IMG/VR virus record: IMGVR_UViG_3300035698_012408
From: a virus
Reading direction: 5' to 3' (one strand)
Length of the DNA: 64,000 nt
Below are positions 3,488 through 64,000 of this stretch, in pieces (positions within the stretch are counted from its first letter, which is position 1; each line of letters opens with the position of its first letter). Under the pieces are notes generated by a model that worked only from the letters and a program-made list of their open reading frames with translations, did no database searches and was not told where the DNA came from. Both the position numbers and the translations under genes were made by a program.

Positions 3488-3997
3488 TTACCAAGCCCGA
3501 CCCTTTGGTTTAAGGCTTCTAACCGCTGGTCTAACCGACACCACCTCGAACGTCCCGTAGGTCTCCCGATCGTCCTGGAACGGTGAGATACCCTTGTAGG
3601 TACCAACCACCGAGAGCAGTTCAATGAAAGCATCCACGGACAATCCGTAAGGCAGCACGGCATTGACCCCTATCGTGTCGCCAGGACGAAATGCCTCGTG
3701 TAAGGCATATCGCTCACGGCCATTTTTGTCGTCGTTGGCTGCGACGACCACGCGACGCCACTTCCCAGTGCGTCCATCAATAATTGGGTCCCATGCGATC
3801 TCCTGCACCAGTTGCTGATACCGATTGACCACCTTAGCGGCATAACGTAACCGCCGTCGCCACCACGACACCAAGAACATAACACGCCCGTTGTTGTCCC
3901 GCGGCATCCTGTAGATCACATTATTCCGTACTGTCTGCTGTCTAGCAAAACCCAAGCATTCGCGATTGAAACGAAGTCGGGCAGTAACCTCCTGCAT
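3488..3997 (-). CDS. hypothetical protein
   Basis: 169-aa ORF in the minus-strand array with no motif I recognise. Confidence 0.55.
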   Translation of the reverse strand: MQEVTARLRFNRECLGFARQQTVRNNVIYRMPRDNNGRVMFLVSWWRRRLRYAAKVVNRYQQLVQEIAWDPIIDGRTGKWRRVVVAANDDKNGRERYALHEAFRPGDTIGVNAVLPYGLSVDAFIELLSVVGTYKGISPFQDDRETYGTFEVVSVRPAVRSLKPKGRAW

Positions 3998-4037
3998 GGT
4001 ATCCCTTCCGCACTGAACGGTTAAAAGCTACACGTGG

Positions 4038-4964
4038 TCAAGCGACTGCCCGGGCCTGTGCGTGCTTCTTGTACGCCGGAATCTCTGACCCCTTCAATAG
4101 GTTCTCCGGTAAAAACATGTCCCACTTCGCAGACGTGGCAGCCACAATTTGCTGCAACCACGTCCTGCCAAGGTAGGATATAAAAGCATGCGACGCCCGT
4201 AGGTCCCCCTGCCAGCCTCCGCCGGCATGCTGCCAGCGTCGCCACAGAAAATTACTTGGTCGCTCCATATCGCTGTCTGACGGACGCCCTGCGCCCTGCC
4301 AGCAGCTACGAACTGTGTTACATAGCGTGTCCCGGTCAGTTACGACCGTGCCACGTGACACCCGTTGCATCGTCGACGGCGTCAGGCCTAAGGCCATTCG
4401 CAGTTTAGACAACCGCTCCGGGTGTTGCTGATCAACGTACCAGCGAGGGTCAAGGATGTAGGCGAGTAAACAAGCCACACGATCACGATCGATTGTCGGA
4501 ATAAATGACAAATCATGCCACGCTGGGTGTATTGCCAGCACCTCCCGCACGTGATCATCTACTTTCCCTGTCTTATGTAGGATAGCGGCCATTGAGTAGG
4601 ATGGATAGTCCACCGCGGTAACGCGGTGCCACCCACCCAAACTTGGTGGCAGTAAACACTGTCTCATGCGATAAAGCGCTACCTCCGGTTGATCCCGCTC
4701 CTGCTCCGTCTCACACACCAGTGGGCTGGCCACTTCAAGTATGCCATCTTTCCTCAATGCGCAATAACGCGGATACAGTGCCGCAATCAACGGAGCATTA
4801 TTTCGAGTACCCAGCATGCGAATGCGGATACCCTGCCTTGCGTCCAGTCGGCCTACAAAATCCCTCTCTGCTGCCCGCGGCGTGTCCATGCCGTCGGCAT
4901 ACCACACAGCCCCATGAGGATCTGTGTGAAGTTTCAAAGTCGTAATTTCTGTCATCGTACTCAC
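4038..4964 (-). CDS. hypothetical protein
   Basis: 308-aa ORF with a 4-nt overlap with the upstream SbcC-like gene. No recognisable motif. Confidence 0.6.
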   Translation of the reverse strand: MSTMTEITTLKLHTDPHGAVWYADGMDTPRAAERDFVGRLDARQGIRIRMLGTRNNAPLIAALYPRYCALRKDGILEVASPLVCETEQERDQPEVALYRMRQCLLPPSLGGWHRVTAVDYPSYSMAAILHKTGKVDDHVREVLAIHPAWHDLSFIPTIDRDRVACLLAYILDPRWYVDQQHPERLSKLRMALGLTPSTMQRVSRGTVVTDRDTLCNTVRSCWQGAGRPSDSDMERPSNFLWRRWQHAGGGWQGDLRASHAFISYLGRTWLQQIVAATSAKWDMFLPENLLKGSEIPAYKKHAQARAVA

Positions 4965-8683: not shown

Positions 8684-9797
8684 GTTGTGGCCGCGCATAA
8701 TTCGCCTTATATTCCTCAAACATATTTGTGATCTCAGCAAGCGGATCAGGTGCTGCAAGCAGCCGCTGCACGCCGTGATAGACCGGAGAATCCGTAGGAA
8801 CAAGCTCACCCACTGCCGTGAGCAGGTTATCGAACGCCCCTTCGGGCGTATTCACCATGTCCACCTCCACCGTCTCCTCGTTACCGAGATTTCGTGGTTG
8901 GTGGAACAGATGGAACTTGTCCCCGAGTGCCGCTATCAAGCGAGTGTAAGCCTCCGGGATCATGTCATAGTAAGTTGCGCGTAGCATAGGCTTCGCTATG
9001 TGCGGTGGCAGATCGTGCCGCTGATCCACGGGCAGCGCCAACTTCCTAAGACACTCCGCGAACGCTTCCTCCGTCGTGACCGTGAATTCGGTGTACCCAC
9101 GAGTAGCCAGCTGGACCCGCTTCGCAATGAACTGATCCTTGGCCTCATCAACCTCCAGAATGTAGAAATACTTGTGAGGCGGCTCATCGATAGCCTGCAT
9201 GCTCGTGGAGCCCGGCGAATACAGCGTGACAGGGTCTCCATTGGCTGCTACGCCCGCGTACTGCTTGGTGACATGGAAGTCGCCAGAGAACACCGTGAGC
9301 TCACGGGGTAGCTGCGAGAGGCTTCCATCAGTGTGCCCAATAGGCTGCACCTCCGACCAAGACTGATGCGATAGCAAAATCTCCGCGTCAGGAGGTATCA
9401 CCGCCAGCTTTTCGCCCAATTTGTCAGATGGGCAGTAATCCAGCCCGTAGAATTCGACCCCGTTGACCTCGAACATCTGCTCGTTCACGTGACACGGCCA
9501 CGGATGAGCTGAACACCACGGCGGATCAGCCTTGTCATGATTACCTTGAATAAAGTACACAGAGAGCCTCGCGTGCTCCATGCGGTTCATTTCCGTCGTA
9601 AAAGCAGTCACAGACGCAGAATCAGGACGATCCTGGTCGTACATATCGCCGAGAAGTATCAACGGCAACGACTGATGCACGCACGCGTCAACGAGCTGCG
9701 TCAGACTGTAAAAAGCATCCCCGGCGAGTTCCGGGTGCTTCGCCCACGTGTGGAGCCGGAGATGATTATCCCCAGAAATCAAGGCAATTTTGATCAT
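8649..9797 (-). CDS. Mre11/SbcD-like calcineurin-fold nuclease
   Basis: Start trimmed to MIKIALISGDNHL (ATG 9797). Phosphoesterase motifs GDNH, GDMYDQDRP and GNHD. Confidence 0.85.
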   Translation of the reverse strand: MIKIALISGDNHLRLHTWAKHPELAGDAFYSLTQLVDACVHQSLPLILLGDMYDQDRPDSASVTAFTTEMNRMEHARLSVYFIQGNHDKADPPWCSAHPWPCHVNEQMFEVNGVEFYGLDYCPSDKLGEKLAVIPPDAEILLSHQSWSEVQPIGHTDGSLSQLPRELTVFSGDFHVTKQYAGVAANGDPVTLYSPGSTSMQAIDEPPHKYFYILEVDEAKDQFIAKRVQLATRGYTEFTVTTEEAFAECLRKLALPVDQRHDLPPHIAKPMLRATYYDMIPEAYTRLIAALGDKFHLFHQPRNLGNEETVEVDMVNTPEGAFDNLLTAVGELVPTDSPVYHGVQRLLAAPDPLAEITNMFEEYKANYARPQHGEDPSGVSAG

Positions 9798-9798
9798 T

Positions 9799-9815
9799 TT
9801 GGTTTCTAAGTACCG
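9799..9815. repeat. 17-bp exact repeat TTGGTTTCTAAGTACCG, copy 1 (leader of the Mre11-like gene)
   Basis: Identical 17-mer at 25663..25679. Both copies sit in the 5' leader of a minus-strand gene. Confidence 0.8.
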
Positions 9816-9832
9816 CTTGGGTGTTAAATTTG

Positions 9833-10156
9833 TTATGGTATAAACCCTGCATCCTTGAGCGCCTGTACGAGCGACGGGGAGAGAATCGTAACCGGGACGG
9901 CCCCAGTACAATGCGAGAGCCCGCAACACGGGCAACGCATTTCTGGACTGTTTCGGAGCATGTCATTGCGAACTGCTATGCCGTGGATCGTGTCCTCGAA
10001 TAGCCTGTCGGATTCTACCAACTTATCCGCCAGACCTGCACGTTCAACCGTGCTACTTACGCCAAGTGACGACGTTAAGTGGTTGACCGTGTGTAACATA
10101 GGGCAATCCAACTGGAAAGCCTTGTGATACAGATCATGAAATAGTTCGGATGCCAT
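9833..10156 (-). CDS. small hypothetical Cys-containing protein
   Basis: Internal ATG 10156 of track ORF 9833..10351 (MASELFHDLYHKAF...CPCCGLSHC...). The longer form would run antisense through csrA. Divergent from csrA with a 31-bp gap. Confidence 0.4.
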   Translation of the reverse strand: MASELFHDLYHKAFQLDCPMLHTVNHLTSSLGVSSTVERAGLADKLVESDRLFEDTIHGIAVRNDMLRNSPEMRCPCCGLSHCTGAVPVTILSPSLVQALKDAGFIP

Positions 10157-10187
10157 TTTATTGCAACCATAGGAAGGAGCCAGAAGA

Positions 10188-10403
10188 ATGTTAGTGCTAT
10201 CTCGCAAACGCGGAGAAAGAATCTTAATTGGTGACAACATAACAGTCACCGTGGTTGACCTCCGAGACGACAAAGTGCGTCTCGGCGTCGAAGCCCCGCG
10301 AGAGGTACCGGTTAATCGACCGGAAGTTCTCCAAAAAAAGAACGCGGCCAAAGCTGCCGCCGCGGCTACCCAGACACCGCAGGACCAGTCACAGTCGGAC
10401 TGA
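10188..10403 (+). CDS. csrA: carbon storage regulator CsrA/RsmA (RNA-binding translational regulator)
   Basis: MLVLSRKRGERILIGDNITVTVVDLRDDKVRLGVEAPREVPVNRPEV is near-canonical CsrA over its whole core. SD AGGAAGGAG lies 8 nt upstream. Confidence 0.9.
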   Translation: MLVLSRKRGERILIGDNITVTVVDLRDDKVRLGVEAPREVPVNRPEVLQKKNAAKAAAAATQTPQDQSQSD

Positions 10404-11223
10404 ATGGTGTCACCGTCCTCGCGGGCTCGCCACGCTGGCGTTTGAACAGCTCGCGAATGTCACTCTCGCTATTACCTAGCACCTCTCGAACAGACGAGAA
10501 CACGAGGAATCGCTGTGCGAGTATTGTAGGTGACGGCAACGGAACGCCGGTATTGATGTAAAACGGCGGAAGCGTTTTGTCCGTGGCTCCCCAGCTGACC
10601 ATGTAGAAGCCAAGCATGGTGCAGAGCCACGACAGATACTCACCAAAGCCCCCTGGCCACTCGTTACACCGTGTTGGTGTCAGCAGCTTACGTTGGTATA
10701 ACACGCCGACAAACTGCGGACTCAACGCCATGAACGCGTCGGCCAGTGCGGGCGGTGGGGTCTCGACATTCTGATGCGGGATCTCCCATTCATAGAACAG
10801 GTTGGTTGCGGCATGAAAGGCCTTGGCGTGACCACTGGTAGTGTCTTGCACTCCCAGCAACCCTACACCCTCCTTGCTAGTCTGATCTAGCAGATACGCA
10901 TCGAATGGTTGACCCATCACGAGACACGAATCATCCAAGAAGATGACCTGCTTGTACGAGATACCCTTATCGATCGCCCACTTGAGCCCGTGCATGCGAT
11001 GGAACCCGGAACAGGCATCCTTGTCGACGGAGGTATGAATCACTTCATGAGCGCCCTCGGCCGAAAGAGTTTTGATGGTGTTCGTCTCGTCGACGGCCAC
11101 CGTGAATGTCGAACCACCGGGGCACGACCATTGAATCGAAGAGATCAGATCATTCAGGACGTACTCGCCCCGGGCAGAACTGATCACGAATAACGTGTCA
11201 ACATCGTACATAACTGCTCCCAT
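10366..11223 (-). CDS. hypothetical protein, possible GT-A-fold nucleotide-sugar transferase
   Basis: ATG 11223 or 11211; the track start 11232 is TTG. A DxD-like FLDDS follows a beta-alpha-like N-terminus. Lies immediately downstream of hldE. Its 3' end overlaps the csrA 3' end by 38 nt (convergent). Confidence 0.35.
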   Translation of the reverse strand: MGAVMYDVDTLFVISSARGEYVLNDLISSIQWSCPGGSTFTVAVDETNTIKTLSAEGAHEVIHTSVDKDACSGFHRMHGLKWAIDKGISYKQVIFLDDSCLVMGQPFDAYLLDQTSKEGVGLLGVQDTTSGHAKAFHAATNLFYEWEIPHQNVETPPPALADAFMALSPQFVGVLYQRKLLTPTRCNEWPGGFGEYLSWLCTMLGFYMVSWGATDKTLPPFYINTGVPLPSPTILAQRFLVFSSVREVLGNSESDIRELFKRQRGEPARTVTPFSPTVTGPAVSG

Positions 11224-11232
11224 TAAAAGCAA

Positions 11233-11262
11233 ACAGTCCAGCGATGTGACTCGCTGGACTGT
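11233..11262 (-). terminator. rho-independent terminator candidate downstream of hldE
   Basis: Perfect 12-bp stem ACAGTCCAGCGA/TCGCTGGACTGT with a 6-nt loop, followed on the minus strand by TTGCTTTTAA. Confidence 0.55.
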
Positions 11263-11356
11263 TGCCGATCAGGTAATGTGCGCTCGTAAAAACGTGCCGG
11301 GCTGAGCGCGAGAACTTCCATCATTCACTGCATAATAGGCAATTATGCAATGGTTG

Positions 11357-12814
11357 TCAACTCTTCTTCGTAGAGTTCTTTGCATTATCGTCCCCGAGCC
11401 GTGACGAGCTTAAATTGAAAATAATAGGGGTCAACGACAGTTTTCCGCCGTGTGACGCCACATAATCTGCACCTGGGATAGGTTCTGCGGCCGCGTCTTG
11501 CCCCTTCACCAGAACATCTGGCTTCAACTGACGCACAAGCGATTCGACATCCCCATCGAACAAAAATACGGTGTCCACAACATCCAACAACGCCAGATGT
11601 GACAGTCGATAGCTCTCGCCAACGAGCGGTCTATTGTCGCCTTTGAGCTCCCGCAAACTGGTGTCATCATTACACGCCACCACAAGACAGTCGCCTTGCC
11701 GTACTGCTGCGCGGAGCAGTTCGATATGTCCAGCATGCAACCCGTCGAAGCAACCATTGGCTAATACGATTGACTGTCGTCGCCGACGCCGTCGCCGTAC
11801 AAAGGCCAAGGCGTCATCACGATCCATACATTTGGCAGCCCATCCGGTAGCCTCGTATCGAAATTCGTCGACGGCGTCACGATGAGCCGGCACGACACCG
11901 CGATGACGCACCACCATGCCCGCAGCGTACATAGCAAACTGCACGCAAGTATCAAACGACTTGCCTTCCAAGTACCCGACGGCCATCGCCGCCATCACAG
12001 TATCACCAGCGCCGCACACATCATAAATCTGTTGCGGACTGGACTGAAAACTGTGGATCTGGTTATCCCAGGGATTGAAATACATGCAACCGTCCGACCC
12101 CTGCGTCATGAGCACGGAGCCAAAGTTACCAGCTCGCCTCAACTCCTGCAAGATGGACTCAGGCTCCCCAGCGAACACACCAGGATGCACGACGTTGTAG
12201 CGATCCACCATATCACGCGCTTCGTTGCTGTTGGGCTTCAGCAAATCCACGTTCTCGTATTGTTCAACGCAGTCCGGGCGGCAGTCTACGAAAATCGGTA
12301 TGGCGAGTTCCTGACATCGCTGCCGAAGCGCACTCCACACCGCGTCCGTCATCACGCCTTTCGCGTAATCTGCCACACATACCAATCGTACGGCCGTGCC
12401 CTCTGCGAGCCCGTAATTGAGCCCCGCTATCACGGCTTTGTCATTGCTCAATGGCAGCGTCTCATCATCCGCACGACACAGATACTGACCACCGGCCATG
12501 ATCCGCGTCTTCACGCTCGTGCGTGTACCGTCCGGCCCTTGCGGCAAACACGACACTACACCAGCTTCGTTGAGGAGTTCCCCAACCCTTCGCCCGGCAG
12601 CGTCGTCGCCTACCACGCCAAGCAGCTTCGCATGTCCGCCGAGCGTAACTATGTTGTGGGCGACGTTACCCGCACCACCTACCGATTCCGTGAAGTCGTC
12701 TTGGGCTACGACAGGAGCCGCTGCCTCGGGCGATACACGGGTCATTTCCCCGCATACCGCCCTATCCAGCATCACGTCACCGATCACCAATACCGTAGGT
12801 TTCGGATCACTCAT
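11357..12814 (-). CDS. hldE: bifunctional D-beta-D-heptose 7-phosphate kinase / D-beta-D-heptose 1-phosphate adenylyltransferase (ADP-heptose synthesis)
   Basis: N-terminal pfkB kinase (VLVIGDVMLDR, GGAGNVA, DVCGAGDT) plus C-terminal cytidylyltransferase (NGCFDGLHAGHIELL). ATG 12814 is preferred over the GTG at 12841. Confidence 0.9.
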   Translation of the reverse strand: MSDPKPTVLVIGDVMLDRAVCGEMTRVSPEAAAPVVAQDDFTESVGGAGNVAHNIVTLGGHAKLLGVVGDDAAGRRVGELLNEAGVVSCLPQGPDGTRTSVKTRIMAGGQYLCRADDETLPLSNDKAVIAGLNYGLAEGTAVRLVCVADYAKGVMTDAVWSALRQRCQELAIPIFVDCRPDCVEQYENVDLLKPNSNEARDMVDRYNVVHPGVFAGEPESILQELRRAGNFGSVLMTQGSDGCMYFNPWDNQIHSFQSSPQQIYDVCGAGDTVMAAMAVGYLEGKSFDTCVQFAMYAAGMVVRHRGVVPAHRDAVDEFRYEATGWAAKCMDRDDALAFVRRRRRRRQSIVLANGCFDGLHAGHIELLRAAVRQGDCLVVACNDDTSLRELKGDNRPLVGESYRLSHLALLDVVDTVFLFDGDVESLVRQLKPDVLVKGQDAAAEPIPGADYVASHGGKLSLTPIIFNLSSSRLGDDNAKNSTKKS

Positions 12815-37688: not shown

Positions 37689-37928
37689 TTAGGGCGTCGG
37701 ACTTTGTGGCTTCCGAGCCACGGGACCGCCTTCTACCGCGGGTGCTGAGGACGCAGGGGACCGCAAAGAACCGAGTCCCTTGCAGATCGCGACACAAAGA
37801 CACCACAGTGCGGTAAGTAGGCCCACGACTACGCTCCAAGCGTAGGTAGCCAATGTTTCACAGCCGTTTTCAAACCATTGAAATCCCGGCTCTTCCGGCG
37901 CTTCGCCAGATTTTGTATCATAATCCAT
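37689..37928 (-). CDS. small membrane protein
   Basis: 79 aa with GGAG 11 nt upstream. One TM segment, AWSVVVGLLTALWCLCVAI. Its start codon overlaps the terL start in a CATG. Confidence 0.45.
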   Translation of the reverse strand: MDYDTKSGEAPEEPGFQWFENGCETLATYAWSVVVGLLTALWCLCVAICKGLGSLRSPASSAPAVEGGPVARKPQSPTP

Positions 37929-39858
37929 GTCAATAATAACTCCAAATCCTTTGCAGGATCATCGTCGCTCCGCACTTTCCAACAGAGAAGTAAGTTCCAT
38001 TCTCTCAGATCTGGAAGCCCAGAAAGTATCTGGGAGGACGCAAGGCAACGTCGATCGAATTATCCAGCTACGCAGGCTGGCCGAGGCGGGGGCAGTTCAA
38101 ACGCTAGAACCGCTGTTACCCCTCTGTCTTACTCTTCAAGGAAAACCATACGAATTAAGCGATCACTTTCCGTTTTCGCCGGTTTTCAATGTCTCGATGC
38201 CGTCGAACCTATTGCTCAAGACAGGGCGGCAGGTATCTAAGTCGACATCGCTGGCCAGTCACGGTGTGATGTTAGCCAACGCCATTCCGTTCTTCCGCAC
38301 ACTTTATATCACGCCGCTCTACGAGCAGATTCGGCGATTCTCCAACAACTACGTGCGACCGTTTATCGATCGTTCTCCGATCAAGTCGCTGTGGTCTGGG
38401 ACGAACACTGAGAACTCGGTGTTACAGCGGTCGTTCAAAAACCTATCGTCGATGCTGTTCAGCTTCGCGTTGATGGACGCCGATCGGGTGCGTGGTATCT
38501 CGGCGGACAAGATTTGCATTGATGAAGTCCAGGACATGGACCCCGATCACATCCCCATTATCCGAGAAGTTATGAGCCACTCGGATTGGGGCCTTATGCA
38601 GACAACTGGAACGCCAAAATCCCTGGATAATCCAATCGAGGGCATCTGGCGTCGTAGTTCGCAAGCGGAATGGTTCATACCGTGTTACTCGTGTGGGGCT
38701 TGGAATATCCCGTCGCTGGAGTTTCATGTTTACGATATGATTGGGCCAGTACATGATGACATATCTGAATCCTGTCCTGGTGTAATCTGCCACAAATGCA
38801 GACGTCCGATCTTCCCGCGACACGGACACTGGGTACACCGGTATCCGCAACGTCGTTGGCAGCTCGCCGGCTTCCACGTCCCGCAGATCGTTATGCCGTT
38901 GCACTATGGCAGGCGGGATAAATGGGCGGAACTTGTTGCGAAGCAGGGCGGCTGGGGAAATACCACAGCCTCCACGTTCGCCAACGAAGTATTAGGCGAG
39001 TCTATCGATGCTGGTCAAAAACTAATCTCGGAGACAGAGCTGCGAGCGGCTTCAACACTTGAGTGGCGTAACGACCCAGACAGGCCATGCGACGCCGTGA
39101 TAAATCGCTTGCAGCATTACGAACAGCGAGTGTTGGCAGTAGACTGGGGCGGCGGTGGCCAAGACGGCGTATCCTTCACCACGGTAGCGGCGCTAGGTTA
39201 CACGTCGGCCGGACAGATTCACGTGCTGTGGGGCAAGCGGATGATCGCCTCGCAGGAACACCTTCGGGAGGCCCGAGAGATCCTGCATTGGCTACAAGTA
39301 TTCCGCTGTGACCTAATGGCCCATGACTACACTGGCGCTGGTGTCGTCCGCGAGACCGTAATGGTTCAAGCTGGTTTCGACCTTGAGCGAGTGATGGCCA
39401 TTCAGTATGTCCGAGCCGCCGCCAACAATCTAATGCGGTTCGTACCGCCGTCCGTGCTGCACAACCGCGCACATTACCGCTTGGATAAAACGCGATCGAT
39501 ACTTTATATGATGCAAGCAATCAAGTTACGACTGCTGCAATTTTTCCAGTATGATTACAACAACGATGATGACGCTGGGTTGATCAATGACTTCCTAGCG
39601 CTCGTTGAAGAGAAGACCGAAAGCCGGCTGGCAGGTGACATCTACACCATCACACGCAACCCGATGCTCTCGGACGACTTCGCCCAATCTGTGAACATCG
39701 GGTGCTCTGCCATCTGGCATGCGAACAATAGCTGGCCAAATTTCGCTGAAGCTGCCTCGATAGGCCGTATTAACTCCAGCCAAATTATAGCCACGGGTTC
39801 GCGAGAGTATGGATGGGACGAAGATCAGACGATGCGAGGCTTCTTCAATCAGCCTTAA
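37927..39858 (+). CDS. terL: terminase large subunit
   Basis: 643 aa. Walker A-like KTGRQVSKST and Walker B KICIDEVQD, with a C-terminal RNase H-like nuclease half (VLAVDWGGGG...AHDYTGAG). Confidence 0.8.
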   Translation: MSIITPNPLQDHRRSALSNREVSSILSDLEAQKVSGRTQGNVDRIIQLRRLAEAGAVQTLEPLLPLCLTLQGKPYELSDHFPFSPVFNVSMPSNLLLKTGRQVSKSTSLASHGVMLANAIPFFRTLYITPLYEQIRRFSNNYVRPFIDRSPIKSLWSGTNTENSVLQRSFKNLSSMLFSFALMDADRVRGISADKICIDEVQDMDPDHIPIIREVMSHSDWGLMQTTGTPKSLDNPIEGIWRRSSQAEWFIPCYSCGAWNIPSLEFHVYDMIGPVHDDISESCPGVICHKCRRPIFPRHGHWVHRYPQRRWQLAGFHVPQIVMPLHYGRRDKWAELVAKQGGWGNTTASTFANEVLGESIDAGQKLISETELRAASTLEWRNDPDRPCDAVINRLQHYEQRVLAVDWGGGGQDGVSFTTVAALGYTSAGQIHVLWGKRMIASQEHLREAREILHWLQVFRCDLMAHDYTGAGVVRETVMVQAGFDLERVMAIQYVRAAANNLMRFVPPSVLHNRAHYRLDKTRSILYMMQAIKLRLLQFFQYDYNNDDDAGLINDFLALVEEKTESRLAGDIYTITRNPMLSDDFAQSVNIGCSAIWHANNSWPNFAEAASIGRINSSQIIATGSREYGWDEDQTMRGFFNQP

Positions 39859-44381: not shown

Positions 44382-44731
44382 CCACCATCTAATAGATCTC
44401 TCGGGCCGGTTTCGTGTACGTTACCCAATTGGGCGACGTACACCCAGTCCGGGAGATCTTCTTTTTTCACCTCTTCCAAATTCTTCCCGCCTTCGCGGAA
44501 ACCTTGAAGCTGGCACATGAATCGCTGCGTCTTGCCGTTAAACAACACGCGTTTGATTATGTTATCGAAACCAGCGTCTGGCCCTGCCACATTCGGAACA
44601 CCAGGAACGTCTGCAAGTAGCATCCGGGCCTGCGGTGTTCCAGGCAGTGCGGTATCCAGCTCGAACAGGTGAAAACTGCCGTCGTGCGTGTTCACCACGA
44701 TCTGCCATGTGATGGGGATACTCGGGGTCAT
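44378..44731 (-). CDS. hypothetical protein translationally coupled to the divergent CsrA
   Basis: 117 aa. The ATGA overlap at 44728..44731 joins it to the csrA-like stop. Confidence 0.6.
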   Translation of the reverse strand: MTPSIPITWQIVVNTHDGSFHLFELDTALPGTPQARMLLADVPGVPNVAGPDAGFDNIIKRVLFNGKTQRFMCQLQGFREGGKNLEEVKKEDLPDWVYVAQLGNVHETGPRDLLDGG

Positions 44732-44940
44732 TCTGGCACTTGCTCCTCAATTTGTACGACGGGCTTCGCCGGTTGGTCTTCGATTTCTTTTCGTACGATG
44801 ATGACGTCCCGATCGGCCGTGAAGCCCAGCCGCGGCTGCGGATGCACCCGGCAAACGAGCACTTCAATAACCCGGGGCTCGGTACTCGGCGGTACCGTGA
44901 TCTTGACAACTTCGTTCTTTTTCCTGCTTAACACTAGCAT
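44728..44940 (-). CDS. divergent CsrA-family protein
   Basis: MLVLSRKKNEVVKI...VIEVLVCRVHPQPRLGFTADRDVIIVRKEI aligns with CsrA (MLILTRRxGExxxI...VxVxVLGxxGxxVRIGxxAPxxVxVxREEI), with a ~12-aa insertion after strand 1. Confidence 0.7.
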   Translation of the reverse strand: MLVLSRKKNEVVKITVPPSTEPRVIEVLVCRVHPQPRLGFTADRDVIIVRKEIEDQPAKPVVQIEEQVPE

Positions 44941-58090: not shown

Positions 58091-58447
58091 TCAGAATTGA
58101 AGTTTTGCTATTTTCCCTTGCCGCTTTGACCGACGATAGTATATCACAATCGGCCGACAAGGGTAACCTTTGCGGCTTTCGATAAATGCCCGGACATCTT
58201 CAAGTGCCGGGTCCTTCGTGCGTTTCAGCTCCAGAAGTTTAATGAACAGGGCATCTACGCACCCGCTCATAAACTTCCACTCGCTGCCACACGTTTTACA
58301 ATGTCTATTGTCCAGATACGCCTGCCATGACGCAAGGGCAACCTCGCGAAGATAGGCAAAAGCCGGGGCCTTGACATAAAAGTCGGGAGCCTTCAGCAGC
58401 CCAATCATGTGCTGGCGATCTAGCTTCAATCGTCTGTTTTCACTCAC
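58091..58447 (-). CDS. hypothetical protein
   Basis: 118 aa with a 4-nt overlap with the upstream GT gene. Confidence 0.5.
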   Translation of the reverse strand: MSENRRLKLDRQHMIGLLKAPDFYVKAPAFAYLREVALASWQAYLDNRHCKTCGSEWKFMSGCVDALFIKLLELKRTKDPALEDVRAFIESRKGYPCRPIVIYYRRSKRQGKIAKLQF

Positions 58448-60624
58448 AGTTCAACTAATTTGAGGGCTGGAGGAGCCACTACCCGAGGTTGTCGCGGCGG
58501 TACGGGCGGTGGTGTGGCTGTGGGCGATACCAGCGGTGGAACCTCCATCACACGCGTATTATTGCGTGGTGCCGGCTGCGGGGGCTGCGTCGCCGGAGCT
58601 TGAGCTGGAGGCCTGGGTGTCATGCCTTTTGCGACCGTGTCGATCAGCGGCATGGTGGACCCGCGGCGGTCCACGGAGCTGGTACGAACAAACTGCTTGC
58701 TGCCATTGAACTGCTTGATGGCGAAACCTGCTTGATATACCTGCTCCCCGATCTGCCAATCCCCGCCCGTGTGTGACAGGCCTGTGCCGAGATCGGGAAT
58801 ATCCGCTGTCTTGATACACTCGTGGGTGATTGCCCAGAACCCGCCGGTAGCAAACAGGATTTTCGTGCCGTTCGGGCTAGGCTTGTCGTTGTGCATCCGC
58901 CACGGACGTCCCTTGTACCACGGTCGCGAGGACAGGACCTCTCGCTGCGTCGGATTGGTCGTCCACACAAACTTCGCTCCGAACATGTGAGCGTTGTTTG
59001 ATTTATGGTGATTTACGATATGCTGCGTGAGTATGGACGCCCAGTTCGGGTTGACGTCGCAGACCGAGTCGTCGTCGAACCAGAGAACCCACTTCGTTTC
59101 GATCGGACAGTCAGGGTCAAAGAACATCTCGCGCATGACCGGATACTTGTAGACATTCTCGGCGTGCTGGTAATGCTTCCGAATCACACCCTTTTTCACA
59201 TAGTTCTCGATCATCGCCAACGACTTTGAATTCAACGCGTTGGAACCAACACGCAGATCCATGCGGCCCGCGGGCATGGTAGCTATCACAGATTCAAGAC
59301 ATCGCTTGTGCAGGTCATGGAATTCCTCGCCGCCGTAGAACAGAATACAGACGGTGTACTTCCCACCCACGTCCTCATTGTCGAAGGCCGCCTCGCTCGC
59401 GTATTCTCGTGTGCCGCCAGGACGCACGGCCACCCCATGCTTGGCTGACCGCCCACGTGTCTCCAGTTTCGCCTTCGGGCTACCACTCATCCGAATGTTA
59501 GCATTGGCTGGCAATTTTACGGAAGTGCGGGCTGACACATGCTGGCTGCCGCGTTTGCATGCCTGCTTAGACGGTACGACTTCGAGCAACTTGGGCTCCT
59601 GCAATTCGGGAGGCTGGACGCCGCCAAGGGGCGGGAGGCTTTGGTCGGTGTAATATTTCATGACTGCTTCCAATACAAGTTCAGGGGTTATCATATTCAT
59701 GCACTCGGCCACTGCCTGTCCTGGCAAGTAAATAGGCCGATGACACAGCAATTTATCATCATTCAGCGGTGTCACTTTGTTCCTCCAACAGCCGTGATGC
59801 TTACAGCAATCCAGCATACCTATCGTGTGCAGATACTGATGGGGCACCAAGATGTTTCCACTGGCTGTCGGACCAAAACCTTTGTTCTCGTTGACGTAGG
59901 CTTCCCACCACCACGCCTCGCGACCACCGCCGAGCACCACCGCGGGACGCTGTAACGCGGCGGCTATGTGCATGGCTGCTGTAACGCCGCAGATAACACC
60001 ATCTGCGTGGTGGATCAGACGTATGAGATCGCGTAGGTTTGTCTGCCCCACAAGATCCAACACTCCGGTGAGCGGCGGATGCCAGTGTCCGCCATCGTTT
60101 CCGCCAGCCTGCACAACGCCGAGACCCCTTGTGGTCAGGGCGTCAACAACGGTTTGAAAGTAATCGGGTCGCCATACCTTGACCGTGGCATCACTCTTCC
60201 CACCTGACAGTATAACCCAATAACGACCATCAACCAATGACACGTCACGCTCAGCGTCGGACAAGTGCAGATCGCCATACGGATGGTGCATCGGTACTTC
60301 TATACCAGTCTGCTTCTTGAAGTCACGATGAAAATATCCACAAAAATGAACGGTCTCTATGTTCTGCACACGAATGCCAGCACCGTACGAGAGCTTGATA
60401 AACTGCACGCCGGGCTTCAACGCCTTCGGTTTCTTTGATTTATGATTCCACAATTCGGTGATATATGGATTGTGCCGCCACAAGTCTGGACACGTCGTAT
60501 CGATGTCTATCTCGACCTCGTCGCCGTACGTCAAATGAATGTCGCGTACCAACGCGGACATGCAGACAATGTCGCCGGGAGATCGGTGGTGTGCTAGCAC
60601 AATTCTCTTGGGATTAACCGCCAT
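58444..60624 (-). CDS. two-domain glycosyltransferase: N-terminal GT9 heptosyltransferase-like plus C-terminal GT2-like, with Pro-rich tail
   Basis: GT9 half: RIVLAHHRSPGDIVCMSALVRDI and LVGQTNLRDLIRLIHHADGVICGVTAAMHIAAAL. GT2 half: KYTVCILFYGGEEF...WFDDDS. Tail: PPAQAPATQPPQPAP. Confidence 0.75.
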   Translation of the reverse strand: MAVNPKRIVLAHHRSPGDIVCMSALVRDIHLTYGDEVEIDIDTTCPDLWRHNPYITELWNHKSKKPKALKPGVQFIKLSYGAGIRVQNIETVHFCGYFHRDFKKQTGIEVPMHHPYGDLHLSDAERDVSLVDGRYWVILSGGKSDATVKVWRPDYFQTVVDALTTRGLGVVQAGGNDGGHWHPPLTGVLDLVGQTNLRDLIRLIHHADGVICGVTAAMHIAAALQRPAVVLGGGREAWWWEAYVNENKGFGPTASGNILVPHQYLHTIGMLDCCKHHGCWRNKVTPLNDDKLLCHRPIYLPGQAVAECMNMITPELVLEAVMKYYTDQSLPPLGGVQPPELQEPKLLEVVPSKQACKRGSQHVSARTSVKLPANANIRMSGSPKAKLETRGRSAKHGVAVRPGGTREYASEAAFDNEDVGGKYTVCILFYGGEEFHDLHKRCLESVIATMPAGRMDLRVGSNALNSKSLAMIENYVKKGVIRKHYQHAENVYKYPVMREMFFDPDCPIETKWVLWFDDDSVCDVNPNWASILTQHIVNHHKSNNAHMFGAKFVWTTNPTQREVLSSRPWYKGRPWRMHNDKPSPNGTKILFATGGFWAITHECIKTADIPDLGTGLSHTGGDWQIGEQVYQAGFAIKQFNGSKQFVRTSSVDRRGSTMPLIDTVAKGMTPRPPAQAPATQPPQPAPRNNTRVMEVPPLVSPTATPPPVPPRQPRVVAPPALKLVEL

Positions 60625-60625
60625 A

Positions 60626-61708
60626 TTAGTCCTCTAACTTCACGCCAAGTCGTTTGGCCTTTGCCACAAGCACTTCATTGTCCGGGGCCAGCTGCACGGC
60701 TGCCAGCAGGTGTCGCTGCATGCGATCCGTCAGTTCCATTTTGAACGCTATCAACCCGGCAAGATCATGCGGGTGATAATCCCACGCTTCATCGCGCGTC
60801 ATATAATGCTGCGGCCGTGCAGTGATCACCAACGCTTGGCACACAGCACCGTACGCCTGCGGCCACATTTCATGCTTCATGTGATACTGCGACAGCACGA
60901 GCCAAGGCTCTCGCTGATTCGGGGCCACGTGACACGCCGTCATGTAAGCGGCCAACGCCTCGGCGGGTTGTCCGAGAGCCTCATACGCTCTTGCCATGTA
61001 ACCATGAGCATTCGATCGTTCGATGCACCAAGCGTCAGGATACGTCGTAAGGTACTTATGTGCCGTGTCTAACACGTCCCCCCAGGCTTCCGCGTAGACG
61101 TACTCGCGAGCGAGCCAGAAAAGATGCCGGTCGGTACCGGTAGGTGACGTGCACTCGCGCTCCATCAGCTCGGTGTAGACTCGACTTTTTTCGCTATCTT
61201 GTCGATGTTCACACACCATAGTTGCTGCGGTGGCCATCGACTCGTCGCTGGCACCCGTCCAGTAAAGATTCTCATGCACGGTGTGTCGCCACTCGTAACC
61301 GGCCCGTTGGTGCGCGAAATCTTTGTAGCCAACTGTGCCGTAACCGCCATCTGCCTTGAACGAATGGATGTAGCGAAACTTCAAACGCGTGTGCGCGCCC
61401 GGCCGGAAATGCTGTTCGATCGGTTCTCGCCAGTTTCCGACAAGCACCTCATCGAGATCCAATGCGATGCACAGATCAATGTCGGTCGGCAAGCAACTGA
61501 GTACCACGTTTCTTGCCATGTCGAACCGCCACGGGTCCACGCAGATCGGTATGACGGTGGCCCCGTGGTCTTGTAGAATCTCTGCCGTGCGATCCTGACT
61601 GGGTGACAGCCCTACGGTCACGCTATCAGCGTACAGGTTGCACGAATCCATGAAACGCTCGGCGAACTTCTCTTCGTCCTTGGCAATTGTGTAAATAGCT
61701 ATTTTCAT
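60626..61708 (-). CDS. GT2-family glycosyltransferase with C-terminal TPR-like repeats (paralog 1)
   Basis: MKIAIYTIAKDEEKFAERF... followed by DLDE. ATG 61708 forms an ATGA overlap with the paralog upstream. Confidence 0.7.
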   Translation of the reverse strand: MKIAIYTIAKDEEKFAERFMDSCNLYADSVTVGLSPSQDRTAEILQDHGATVIPICVDPWRFDMARNVVLSCLPTDIDLCIALDLDEVLVGNWREPIEQHFRPGAHTRLKFRYIHSFKADGGYGTVGYKDFAHQRAGYEWRHTVHENLYWTGASDESMATAATMVCEHRQDSEKSRVYTELMERECTSPTGTDRHLFWLAREYVYAEAWGDVLDTAHKYLTTYPDAWCIERSNAHGYMARAYEALGQPAEALAAYMTACHVAPNQREPWLVLSQYHMKHEMWPQAYGAVCQALVITARPQHYMTRDEAWDYHPHDLAGLIAFKMELTDRMQRHLLAAVQLAPDNEVLVAKAKRLGVKLED

Positions 61709-62790
61709 GCTGCTCCGTCCCAACGATGGAGTATCGCTAGGCCTTTCTTGTTCTGCGGATCGAGTTCCAACGCTTTGAGCACTAACGCCCGTGCTTTGTC
61801 ATTATCGCCGGTTTCGATGCACGCCTGCGCGGTAATTAGAAACGGATCTGGACCCCAGGCAGCCCCATCATTTGTGGTAAACCCTGGGTCGCGATCCACC
61901 ACCAGCAACGCCTTAGACCCAGCCCACTTGGCGCCTTCAAAGTCCTTTTGATCACTGAAATACCTTGTGAGCGCGAACCATATCTCTCGCGTCCCTGGGT
62001 ACTCTGCGGTCGCACGCATGAGCCAGGACAGGGCCTGATTCGGGGCATTGGTGCGAGCGTAGACGTCACCCAGCATTCGCATGGCTTCGGCACGCTCGGC
62101 CTTCCAGTGTGACTTTGGGTGCTCCAGATACTTTGTGAGTGTCTCAGCACTCTTCAGGTCCATCCGGCGGAAGAAATACTCTCGACCGAGATAGAACAGC
62201 GTCCGGGGGCACTCACACTCAGCCACGGCCAGCTCCAGGAGCGAGATGTAGTTTGGCCGGGCCTTCGAGACCATGTAATGATGGATCTCGATGTCTTCGA
62301 GGGCGAGCACCTGGGTTGATTTGTTAAAAGAGGTAAGAGCAGCATGCCCTGGGTGTCGCCAGTGGAACCCGCTACGATCGTGGATATTCCCGGTGCGGAA
62401 ACGCACGGCTGGGACCTTACCTGGGACAGCCCATTTCCAGGTGTACCAGTAGAGAAACTGCTGAGCTATGCCGTCTTGCCATTTCCGTTCCAGTTCGTCC
62501 CGCCAATGGTTACCGCTGTGGGTGAACAGCACCTCGTCGAGATCGAGCTTGATGCACAAGTCCGTATCCTCGGGGACGTTACAGAGTGCCACGTTTGTGG
62601 CCGTGTCAAACCGCCACGGCATGATCCGGGCAGGTACCACGGTAACACCAGCAGCGGTCAATCGTTCCTGCGTACCATCCGTGCTACCCGTGTCTGTGAC
62701 GACAACGTAGTCTGCCCCCTGCGTGGTCTCGACGAAACGGTCGACGTGGTCCGCTTCGTTTTTGGCCATCGTATAAACTGCTATTTTCAT
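61705..62790 (-). CDS. GT2-family glycosyltransferase with C-terminal TPR-like repeats (paralog 2)
   Basis: MKIAVYTMAKNEADHVDRF... followed by LDLDE. Same architecture as 60626..61708. Confidence 0.7.
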   Translation of the reverse strand: MKIAVYTMAKNEADHVDRFVETTQGADYVVVTDTGSTDGTQERLTAAGVTVVPARIMPWRFDTATNVALCNVPEDTDLCIKLDLDEVLFTHSGNHWRDELERKWQDGIAQQFLYWYTWKWAVPGKVPAVRFRTGNIHDRSGFHWRHPGHAALTSFNKSTQVLALEDIEIHHYMVSKARPNYISLLELAVAECECPRTLFYLGREYFFRRMDLKSAETLTKYLEHPKSHWKAERAEAMRMLGDVYARTNAPNQALSWLMRATAEYPGTREIWFALTRYFSDQKDFEGAKWAGSKALLVVDRDPGFTTNDGAAWGPDPFLITAQACIETGDNDKARALVLKALELDPQNKKGLAILHRWDGAA

Positions 62791-62793
62791 TCC

Positions 62794-64000
<1,207 letters not shown>

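Follow-up and report, generated by a model that had tools for sequence, protein, structure and literature searches.

Phages that carry a gene for CsrA, the carbon storage regulator, are already known: 30 of 2517 phage genomes were reported to carry csrA (PMC7366521), phage homologs of RsmA/CsrA have been proposed to manipulate their hosts, for example by repressing CRISPR-Cas, the presence of csrA in a phage correlates with its presence in the host (PMC8450108), and PHROG families 9500, 8397 and 5527 belong to this group. In the literature that we searched, we found neither a functional study of a phage-encoded CsrA nor a paper joining the carbon storage regulator, Planctomycetota and phage in the sense pursued here. 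We describe csrA in a 64,000-nucleotide (nt) stretch of viral DNA (IMG/VR record IMGVR_UViG_3300035698_012408; the whole stretch is called the window below), which belongs to a phage contig of about 215 kb. The bare presence of CsrA in a phage is ordinary; what an earlier interpretation made from the letters alone (the sequence-only reading) had missed is that the gene is placed antisense to its neighbours in a conserved manner across a clade of phages. New are this phage clade, its planctomycete affinity, the conserved antisense embedding, incongruent alleles and the occurrence of two paralogs per genome.

Our preferred explanation, to which we assign a probability of roughly 0.6, is that csrA encodes a functional translational regulator of the CsrA family, which would be a long-standing part of a replication, repair and sugar-nucleotide module in this phage clade rather than a recent passenger, and which would repress host mRNAs. 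During infection, the phage CsrA would dimerise and bind GGA triplets around the Shine-Dalgarno sequences of host mRNAs, namely those of the host CsrA regulon; these mRNAs would then be translationally repressed and host physiology or defences turned toward the phage. Reprogramming of the host in this way is plausible.

Results

The csrA product (MLVLSRKRGERILIGDNITVTVVDLRDDKVRLGVEAPREVPVNRPEVLQKKNAAKAAAAATQTPQDQSQSD) matched the Pfam profile CsrA (PF02599) over profile positions 1-50 of 53 with an E-value (E) of 2.5e-23 and 82.2 bits (cut-off 27), and the family phrog_9500 with E 6.5e-21. These matches, together with the phage genes in the window, uphold the sequence-only reading where it had called the protein a phage-encoded member of the CsrA family. 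The alignment with E. coli CsrA (PDB 1y00; E 2.2e-13) is ungapped over residues 1-57; L2, L4, R6, V40, V42, R44 and E46 are kept, R7 is replaced by K and I47 by V, and K7 and V47 are both usual among planctomycete homologs. The RNA-binding residues, which belong to strands beta1 and beta5 and whose possible loss had been named as a reason to abandon the assignment, are intact on this alignment, and the protein departs from none of the 17 columns found invariant among 37 homologs. The core of the protein spans residues 1-50, with a predicted helix at 45-61 and predicted disorder in the tail (64-71). In the AlphaFold2 monomer model (predicted local distance difference test, pLDDT, 77.8) strands lie at 11-14, 18-26 and 29-35 and the helix at 45-61; the best 15 PDB matches of the model are all CsrA, RsmA or RsmE chains (E 4.5e-5 to 3e-3). 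A 2026 study found that K7, S11, I25, E45 and L47 predict CsrA activity on the B. subtilis hag leader (PMC13443453), and of these five residues the window CsrA has K7 only.

The phage nature of the window is evident from PHROG matches to a large terminase (37927-39858), a ribonucleotide reductase, an SbcC-like protein and a helicase. No GenBank phage matched at the DNA level, the terminase is at most about 32% identical to those of isolates, and neither tRNAs nor Rfam families were found in the 64 kb. The exact CsrA protein is present on 11 metagenomic contigs, the longest of 215,361 bp. Eight contigs with this protein were retrieved (L001-L008); over the 641 nt compared, the DNA of each matches the window at 100% of positions, and they are therefore uninformative on population variation. 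These identical contigs stem from at least eight samples (JGI, ENA, Logan), that is, one clonal phage genotype recurs across datasets. Among the samples with the identical contig are SRR8526178, JGI 3300005935 and 3300025736, and ERZ27315525.

The phage is a member of a clade of large phages of roughly 180-230 kb, the relatives coming from metagenome assemblies that were not binned, among them SDBU01 (Loki's Castle sediment; PMC6401483). In seven related lineages (L176, L177/L178, L179/L180, L181, L182, L183 and L184) csrA occupies this same place in the gene order and likewise runs against its neighbours. The common order is HldE-like, glycosyltransferase (GT)-like, csrA (opposite strand, 3' overlap), small Cys protein, SbcD-like, SbcC-like and helicase, with two exceptions: L179, where the gene calls lack a small Cys gene, and L181, which stops at the contig edge just past csrA. 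The SbcD-like gene is present in every locus that extends far enough, and csrA overlaps the 3' end of the GT-like gene in all seven relatives, by 4-41 nt, at flanking proteins only 27-79% identical to those of the window. Over the 50-codon core, the ratio of nonsynonymous to synonymous substitution rates (dN/dS) among CsrA orthologs is 0.04-0.22 for pairs with a measurable dS (L176 against L178: dS 0.50, dN 0.06), synonymous sites being otherwise saturated; these ratios show clear purifying selection on csrA in the phage clade. In phages F116 and D279 and at 28 further viral (IMG/VR) loci, csrA for the most part runs in the same direction as the genes around it, and its embedding antisense to the neighbours is therefore particular to this clade.

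We then compared CsrA with cellular proteins. In a search of 5.8 billion proteins, the best matches are 60-75% identical and, where named, come from Planctomycetota, to which 71 of the best 80 genome loci also belong; the cellular set was gathered by similarity to the window protein. The nearest homologs lie in cellular contexts (gyrB-csrA-greA, lepA...mreB, a tandem csrA pair). On the basis of this similarity, the host is probably a planctomycete. Third codon positions of csrA are only about 0.30 identical to those of every relative, including the nearest cellular gene, and are thus saturated, so that no transfer of csrA is recent.

The CsrA sequences are incongruent with the backbone tree of the phages. 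In the HldE tree the window groups with L176 and L178 (100% bootstrap), whereas its CsrA core is only 60-62% identical to theirs and 78% identical to a cellular CsrA of the '...RGERI.IGDNI.VTV.D.RD' type; CsrA of L176 and L178 in turn is 88-90% identical to cellular proteins of the 'KKNESIVINDDITIVVVEIRGDK' type. On resampling of alignment columns, the window protein was nearer to a cellular protein of the first type than to those of its sister phages in 499 of 500 replicates, and the converse held for L178 in 500 of 500; these counts are to be read with the limits that the protein is short, that the best of many cellular sequences was set against two phages, and that the cellular set had been picked by similarity to the window protein. 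The pattern would fit an old exchange of alleles with cellular paralogs at a fixed locus, or a strong acceleration in the window lineage. A monophyletic clade of phage CsrAs was not recovered, and the protein is too short for a resolved tree.

In L012 (2558-2926, plus strand), the gene flanked by gyrB and greA encodes a 122-aa cellular protein, P0003, made up of two tandemly fused CsrA domains; this protein could be a single-chain 'dimer'. In L009 (1335-1987) the closest cellular homolog, P0002, is part of a tandem csrA pair of 61 aa each; the tandem CsrAs are only 37% identical in alignments to the window protein and illustrate how rich in paralogs the presumed host phylum is.

The comparative data largely refute the idea that the phage picked up csrA from a host recently, or that the gene is a passenger in decay without a role in the phage, which we regard as extremely unlikely. 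Such a history would agree with the cellular origin of the closest relatives, the alteration of several conserved positions, the GC content at third codon positions (GC3; 0.48 in the csrA core vs 0.60-0.67 in the neighbours) and the lack of csrA in one related phage, L185. It does not agree with the recurrence of the same locus and orientation in eight lineages whose synonymous sites are saturated, nor with an intact open reading frame (ORF) preceded by a good Shine-Dalgarno sequence, nor with the third-position identity of 0.30 to the nearest cellular gene and a GC content of 0.551 in csrA vs 0.562 in the window.

Several observations nevertheless weigh against a functional, long-established regulator of host mRNAs. 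The csrA product scored narrowly under the cut-offs of two NCBIfam equivalogs (NF002469, 72.4 with a cut-off of 73; TIGR00202, 67.0 with a cut-off of 70.1), and five nearly invariant positions are altered (I25L, G27D, H43N, P45 and I51K). Where the protein had been described as near-consensus CsrA, the family and the RNA-binding residues stand, but the description is overstated in view of these five differences and of a core that is 70% identical to the consensus of the nearest cellular relatives; because of the five changes and the two missed cut-offs, the specificity or activity of the phage protein may differ from that of host CsrA. No sigma-70-like promoter was found on either strand near the 31-nt gap upstream of csrA, and no plus-strand terminator 3' of the gene, where the downstream fold was no better than shuffles (z = 0.04). 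With regard to a moron, an accessory phage gene transcribed on its own, the opposite orientation of csrA implies a separate transcription unit; csrA is present in 8 of 9 lineages, its GC content is close to that of the window, and promoter and terminator were not found as just described. The ninth lineage, L185, has no csrA; it is nested within the csrA-bearing phages in the HldE tree with a weak support of 32%, and this position suggests, as weakly, that csrA was lost there. The assignment of the host draws on CsrA similarity alone, the HldE-like protein not being host-diagnostic, and our analysis covers 64 kb of a genome of about 215 kb.

csrA is not the sole CsrA-family gene in the window. 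A second, divergent one, detected by tblastn (Table 1), encodes a product that matches Pfam CsrA with E 3.1e-9 and 37.1 bits (cut-off 27), is 36% identical to the first CsrA and carries an ITVPPSTEP insertion, counted as 6 aa. It has 225 matching cluster representatives at E <= 1e-3, and an insertion of this VPPS type after strand 1 was seen in 11 of the 12 matching sequences that were read. In L184 (a 229-kb contig) we observed a second csrA at 3874-4131 on the minus strand (MLVLSRRLDEEIRIGDDIVLQIVGIGTNNVRIGVTAPKEIPVRRSE...), with a Pfam E of 2.7e-18. Some 6.5 kb separate it from the syntenic csrA, from which it differs. This copy, too, runs against its neighbours; it overlaps a 248-aa gene at the 3' end of the latter and was missed by the public gene caller.

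Given a CsrA in a replication and repair module, it might mainly regulate the phage's own mRNAs, as a translational repressor akin to T4 RegA that would bind the ribosome-binding sites of early or middle genes and so turn them off. We consider this possible but unlikely. The position of csrA in the module and its conservation with it speak for such a role, as does the second CsrA paralog, which suggests an internal regulatory system. GGA is also enriched in phage leaders (1.44 vs 0.95 per 51 nt); most Shine-Dalgarno sequences of the phage contain it, and 69 of 79 leaders have at least one such triplet. This excess, however, comes from the Shine-Dalgarno sequence alone: in the upstream part of the leaders (-45 to -15) there are 0.557 GGA per leader against a background of 0.587, which is no enrichment, and no set of phage leaders with paired GGA sites stands out in the window. 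Control of phage late genes through paired GGA sites, which the sequence-only reading had offered as one possible role, hence finds no sequence support. Nor did the 64-kb window contain a GGA-dense intergenic stretch or sponge RNA.

The leader of csrA itself has three GGA triplets, two of them inside the Shine-Dalgarno sequence and the third at about -39, which would likewise suit regulation of phage mRNAs; the upstream one, however, is constrained by the start of the divergent gene. The relatives have AAGGAG, AAGGAA or AAGGGT as the csrA Shine-Dalgarno sequence in the same place. Since csrA is one of 11 genes in the window with three or more GGA in their leader, self-repression is possible and not specifically indicated. 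The fold of the csrA leader was not significant (z = 1.35).

CsrA of Planctomycetes is expected to be under the control of FliW rather than of small RNAs (PMC4682653), and B. subtilis CsrA needs N55 and D41 for binding and inhibition by FliW (bioRxiv 10.1101/2020.07.02.184341). The phage CsrA might accordingly interfere with the host Csr system, either by soaking up FliW or by forming mixed dimers that alter host CsrA, and the likeness of the phage alleles to differing subtypes of cellular CsrA looks as though they followed partners in the host. Further in favour of such interference, CsrA of L179, L181, L182 and L184 has an H-N-x-x-(S/N)-G-F motif at positions 54-64, near that of N55, which may be the counterpart of the FliW-contact region of B. 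subtilis CsrA. The window CsrA lacks this motif and has K55 and P41 at the relevant positions, and FliW binding is doubtful for this allele because N55 is absent. As P41 is also found in nearly all cellular planctomycete homologs, the rule from B. subtilis may not transfer. FliW was not found among 68 further proteins of the window in a Pfam scan, and a tblastn search of the window with an unreliable B. subtilis FliW query gave no match. Taken together, we judge interference with the host Csr system to be improbable. In the four relatives with the motif, its third position is E, K or Q, which gives H-N-(E/K/Q)-x-(S/N)-G-F at about 54-64.

The csrA gene and its surroundings are summarized in Table 1. 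When we re-read the sequence, every coordinate and the anatomy given for csrA in the sequence-only reading proved correct; its 31-bp divergent gap and its 38-nt convergent overlap are exact, the GT-like gene ending at 10366, and a transcript that reaches the csrA stop codon is, as it had proposed, antisense to the last 38 nt of that gene. It had also presented csrA as the lone plus-strand gene of a long minus-strand block, and our codon-score gene caller found nothing but minus-strand genes in the remainder of 1246-37055. Independent public gene calls on the identical contigs give the same strand picture over about 20 kb. The codon-score caller is crude, and at the second CsrA-family gene it chose an opposite-strand ORF (44740-44931) over the gene itself.

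Table 1. Coordinates of csrA, associated elements and neighbouring genes in the window.
Feature	Position	Strand	Description
csrA	10188..10403	+	71-aa CsrA-family RNA-binding protein; ATG to TGA
Shine-Dalgarno sequence of csrA, AGGAAGGAG	10171..10179	+	ends 8 nt 5' of the ATG
Second CsrA-family gene, MLVLSRKKNEVVKITVPPSTEPRV...	44728..44940	-	70 aa; found by tblastn; co-directional with neighbours
Small Cys protein	9833..10156	-	107 aa, 5 Cys (MASELFHDLY..., C-terminal CPCCGLSHC); divergent from csrA
Divergent gap, csrA / small Cys protein	10157..10187	.	31 nt
GT-like protein	10366..11211	-	281 aa, GT-A fold; convergent with csrA
Convergent overlap of csrA and GT-like 3' ends	10366..10403	.	38 nt
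Terminator-like element, GCGGC-AGCTTTG-GCCGC then GTTCTTTTTTT (T run)	10334..10360	-	directly past the GT-like stop
HldE-like protein	11357..12814	-	bifunctional heptose-7-phosphate kinase / heptose-1-phosphate adenylyltransferase; syntenic anchor of the module

csrA occupies the entire 209-nt spacer between the stop of the GT-like gene and the start of the small-protein gene. The geometry is excludon-like, with a 38-nt overlap of coding sequences and csrA spanning the spacer between two minus-strand genes. With no spacer left free between its two co-directional neighbours on the opposite strand, csrA is probably transcribed as its own unit. Its mRNA would be fully complementary to any read-through transcript of the flanking operon, and therefore csrA expression and read-through of the operon are likely to be mutually antagonistic in time. 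The divergent gap is only 31 nt long and thus leaves no room for two separate promoters; in five relatives the corresponding gap measures 21-70 nt, and in L179, in which no small gene was called, 398 nt.

An GTGTAACAT motif lies 5' of csrA at 10090-10098 on the plus strand, and recurs about 45-50 nt 5' of csrA in L179 and L181, with variants in L182 and L183. We considered it as a repeated phage promoter and rejected it as such, since the window is not enriched in it (47 matches vs 41 expected, with 2 mismatches allowed).

The arrangement raises the question of whether the antisense transcript is the selected feature and the protein secondary, the transcript controlling read-through from the GT-like gene into the genes for the small protein and SbcCD. 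Orientation and 3' overlap of csrA are kept in seven of seven relatives, csrA fills the spacer completely, and a minus-strand terminator-like hairpin lies inside csrA, all of which would suit this explanation; so would L185, where the GT-like and small Cys protein genes overlap by 4 nt as one operon (9574-10805), a natural comparator without csrA. Yet purifying selection on the protein is strong (see the dN/dS values above), no family-invariant residue has been lost, the terminator-like element lacks conservation and the length of the overlap varies. We therefore hold a primary role of the RNA to be very unlikely and retain a functional CsrA protein as the better reading of the locus. The terminator-like element sits within csrA codons 50-58 (KKNAAKAAA). 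A conserved minus-strand terminator in csrA was rejected: the window has the element, L176 and L182 may have it, and the other relatives do not. As it is not consistently present, we treat it as a weak part of the model.

The overlap has probably also left a mark on CsrA. Its tail (...TPQDQSQSD) is the antisense reading of the conserved C-terminus of the GT-like protein (SPTVTGPAVSG), in which P272 and G276 are invariant across 17 sequences, and the part of CsrA past about residue 60 is probably a by-product of this overlap.

The GT-like protein matched no Pfam or NCBIfam family and nothing in IMG/VR, and has 16 homologs of 45-68% identity. Its AlphaFold2 model (pLDDT 78.3; predicted template modelling score, pTM, 0.79) has as best PDB matches in Foldseek XXYLT1, GtrB and GpgS (E 1e-6 to 1e-5; template modelling score, TM, 0.35-0.45). 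The label 'GT-like' of the sequence-only reading is thus justified at the level of the fold, that of GT-A glycosyltransferases (E about 1e-6), and not by a Pfam or NCBIfam family match. The small Cys protein had no match in Pfam, NCBIfam or PHROG; homologs with a CPxCGxxxC-type motif are encoded in L176, L178, L182, L183 and L184 and also in the csrA-less L185.

The HldE-like protein matched Pfam PfkB (E 9e-40) and CTP_transf_like (E 6e-12) as well as NCBIfam HldE NF008454 (E 2.7e-92, under the model cut-off), and has about 40 phage-type homologs on contigs of 205-230 kb. A cellular homolog of CsrA (L013) adjoins genes for GmhA, HldE and a glycosyltransferase, and we considered whether csrA had been acquired together with a host heptose cluster; this was rejected, as the HldE-like protein of the phage is only 29-36% identical to those cellular proteins and has a phage clade of its own.

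Further observations concern the sugar genes. The 145-nt leader of the GT-like gene (11222-11360) contains a sigma-70-like promoter, TTGACA-17-TATTAT, with 11 of 12 matches (11360-11332), and a perfect 13-bp hairpin with a T-rich tail (11263-11232) just 5' of the start codon, which could be a terminator of the HldE operon or a leader attenuator. Besides the HldE-like gene (ADP-heptose synthesis) and the GT-A-fold gene of Table 1, the heptose-sugar genes of the window, all on the minus strand, encode a 726-aa protein with a GT9 heptosyltransferase domain (58444-60624; E 6.5e-14), a tetratricopeptide repeat (TPR)/GT2-like protein (61705-62790) and a collagen-repeat protein (62794-63891; E 2.4e-19). 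Such a set suggests that the phage heptosylates a virion fibre or some host structure. In L183 (1-775), a ribonucleotide reductase was called as 1431 aa with weak or faint matches to an intein and a LAGLIDADG homing endonuclease; that of the window has 659 aa and no such matches.

Discussion

The csrA locus offers a natural comparative series of eight diverged lineages with the gene and one without, and widens the range of phage CsrA to large phages whose presumed host phylum is little studied and rich in CsrA paralogs. A functional regulator that represses host mRNAs remains our preferred reading. One can go further and picture a clade of 180-230 kb Planctomycetota phages in which CsrA is a core regulator wired as an antisense switch, with read-through and CsrA production exclusive in time, the allele at the fixed locus being swapped with cellular CsrA paralog types so as to track the host, and the VPPS-type paralog adding specificity or mixed dimers; this fuller scenario is speculative and, in our view, rather doubtful. 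Should allele exchange between host paralogs and the fixed locus be real, it would suggest that the phage protein has to fit its partners in the host, which could guide work on CsrA specificity.

A functional analogy exists with RegA of phage T4, a small phage protein that represses translation at ribosome-binding regions and acts on phage early mRNAs. Fold and family of RegA are unrelated to CsrA, and the targeting of early mRNAs is without sequence support in the window. The likeness to cellular CsrA/RsmA (E. coli 1y00, P. fluorescens RsmE 2jpp, Geobacillus CsrA-FliW 5dmb) is far closer and consists in a single 50-residue domain and the RNA-binding residues; the N-terminus, MLVLSRK, is identical to that of the B. 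subtilis and planctomycete type, and paralogs from Planctomycetota reach core identities of up to 65-78%. Unlike these proteins, the window CsrA is phage-encoded, bears the changes H43N, I51K, G27D, I25L and P45 and has a tail probably set by a gene overlap, and unlike in cellular Csr systems neither FliW nor a sponge RNA was found within the window.

Other mobile elements also carry copies of this regulator, a CsrA homolog of plasmid pQBR103, RsmQ, being one. CsrT of a Legionella integrative and conjugative element (ICE) and the Rsm proteins of Pseudomonas plasmids, mentioned in PMC7366521, share with the window csrA that a mobile element has its own copy of a global regulator of the host, and differ in the type of element and in the host phylum.

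The closest described counterparts are the reported phage CsrAs (P. aeruginosa F116, H66 and phi297, RsmM type; Vibrio, Serratia and Erwinia phages), which are likewise small CsrA genes of tailed phages whose presumed host also has CsrA. The window CsrA is only 43-53% identical to those in GenBank (Pseudomonas F116, phi297, Vibrio and others) and belongs to a phage of about 215 kb without a close GenBank relative. In F116, D279 and most IMG/VR loci, csrA is co-directional within operons of small genes, whereas here it is embedded antisense in a replication module, and the presence of two CsrA-family genes in one genome further sets this phage apart.

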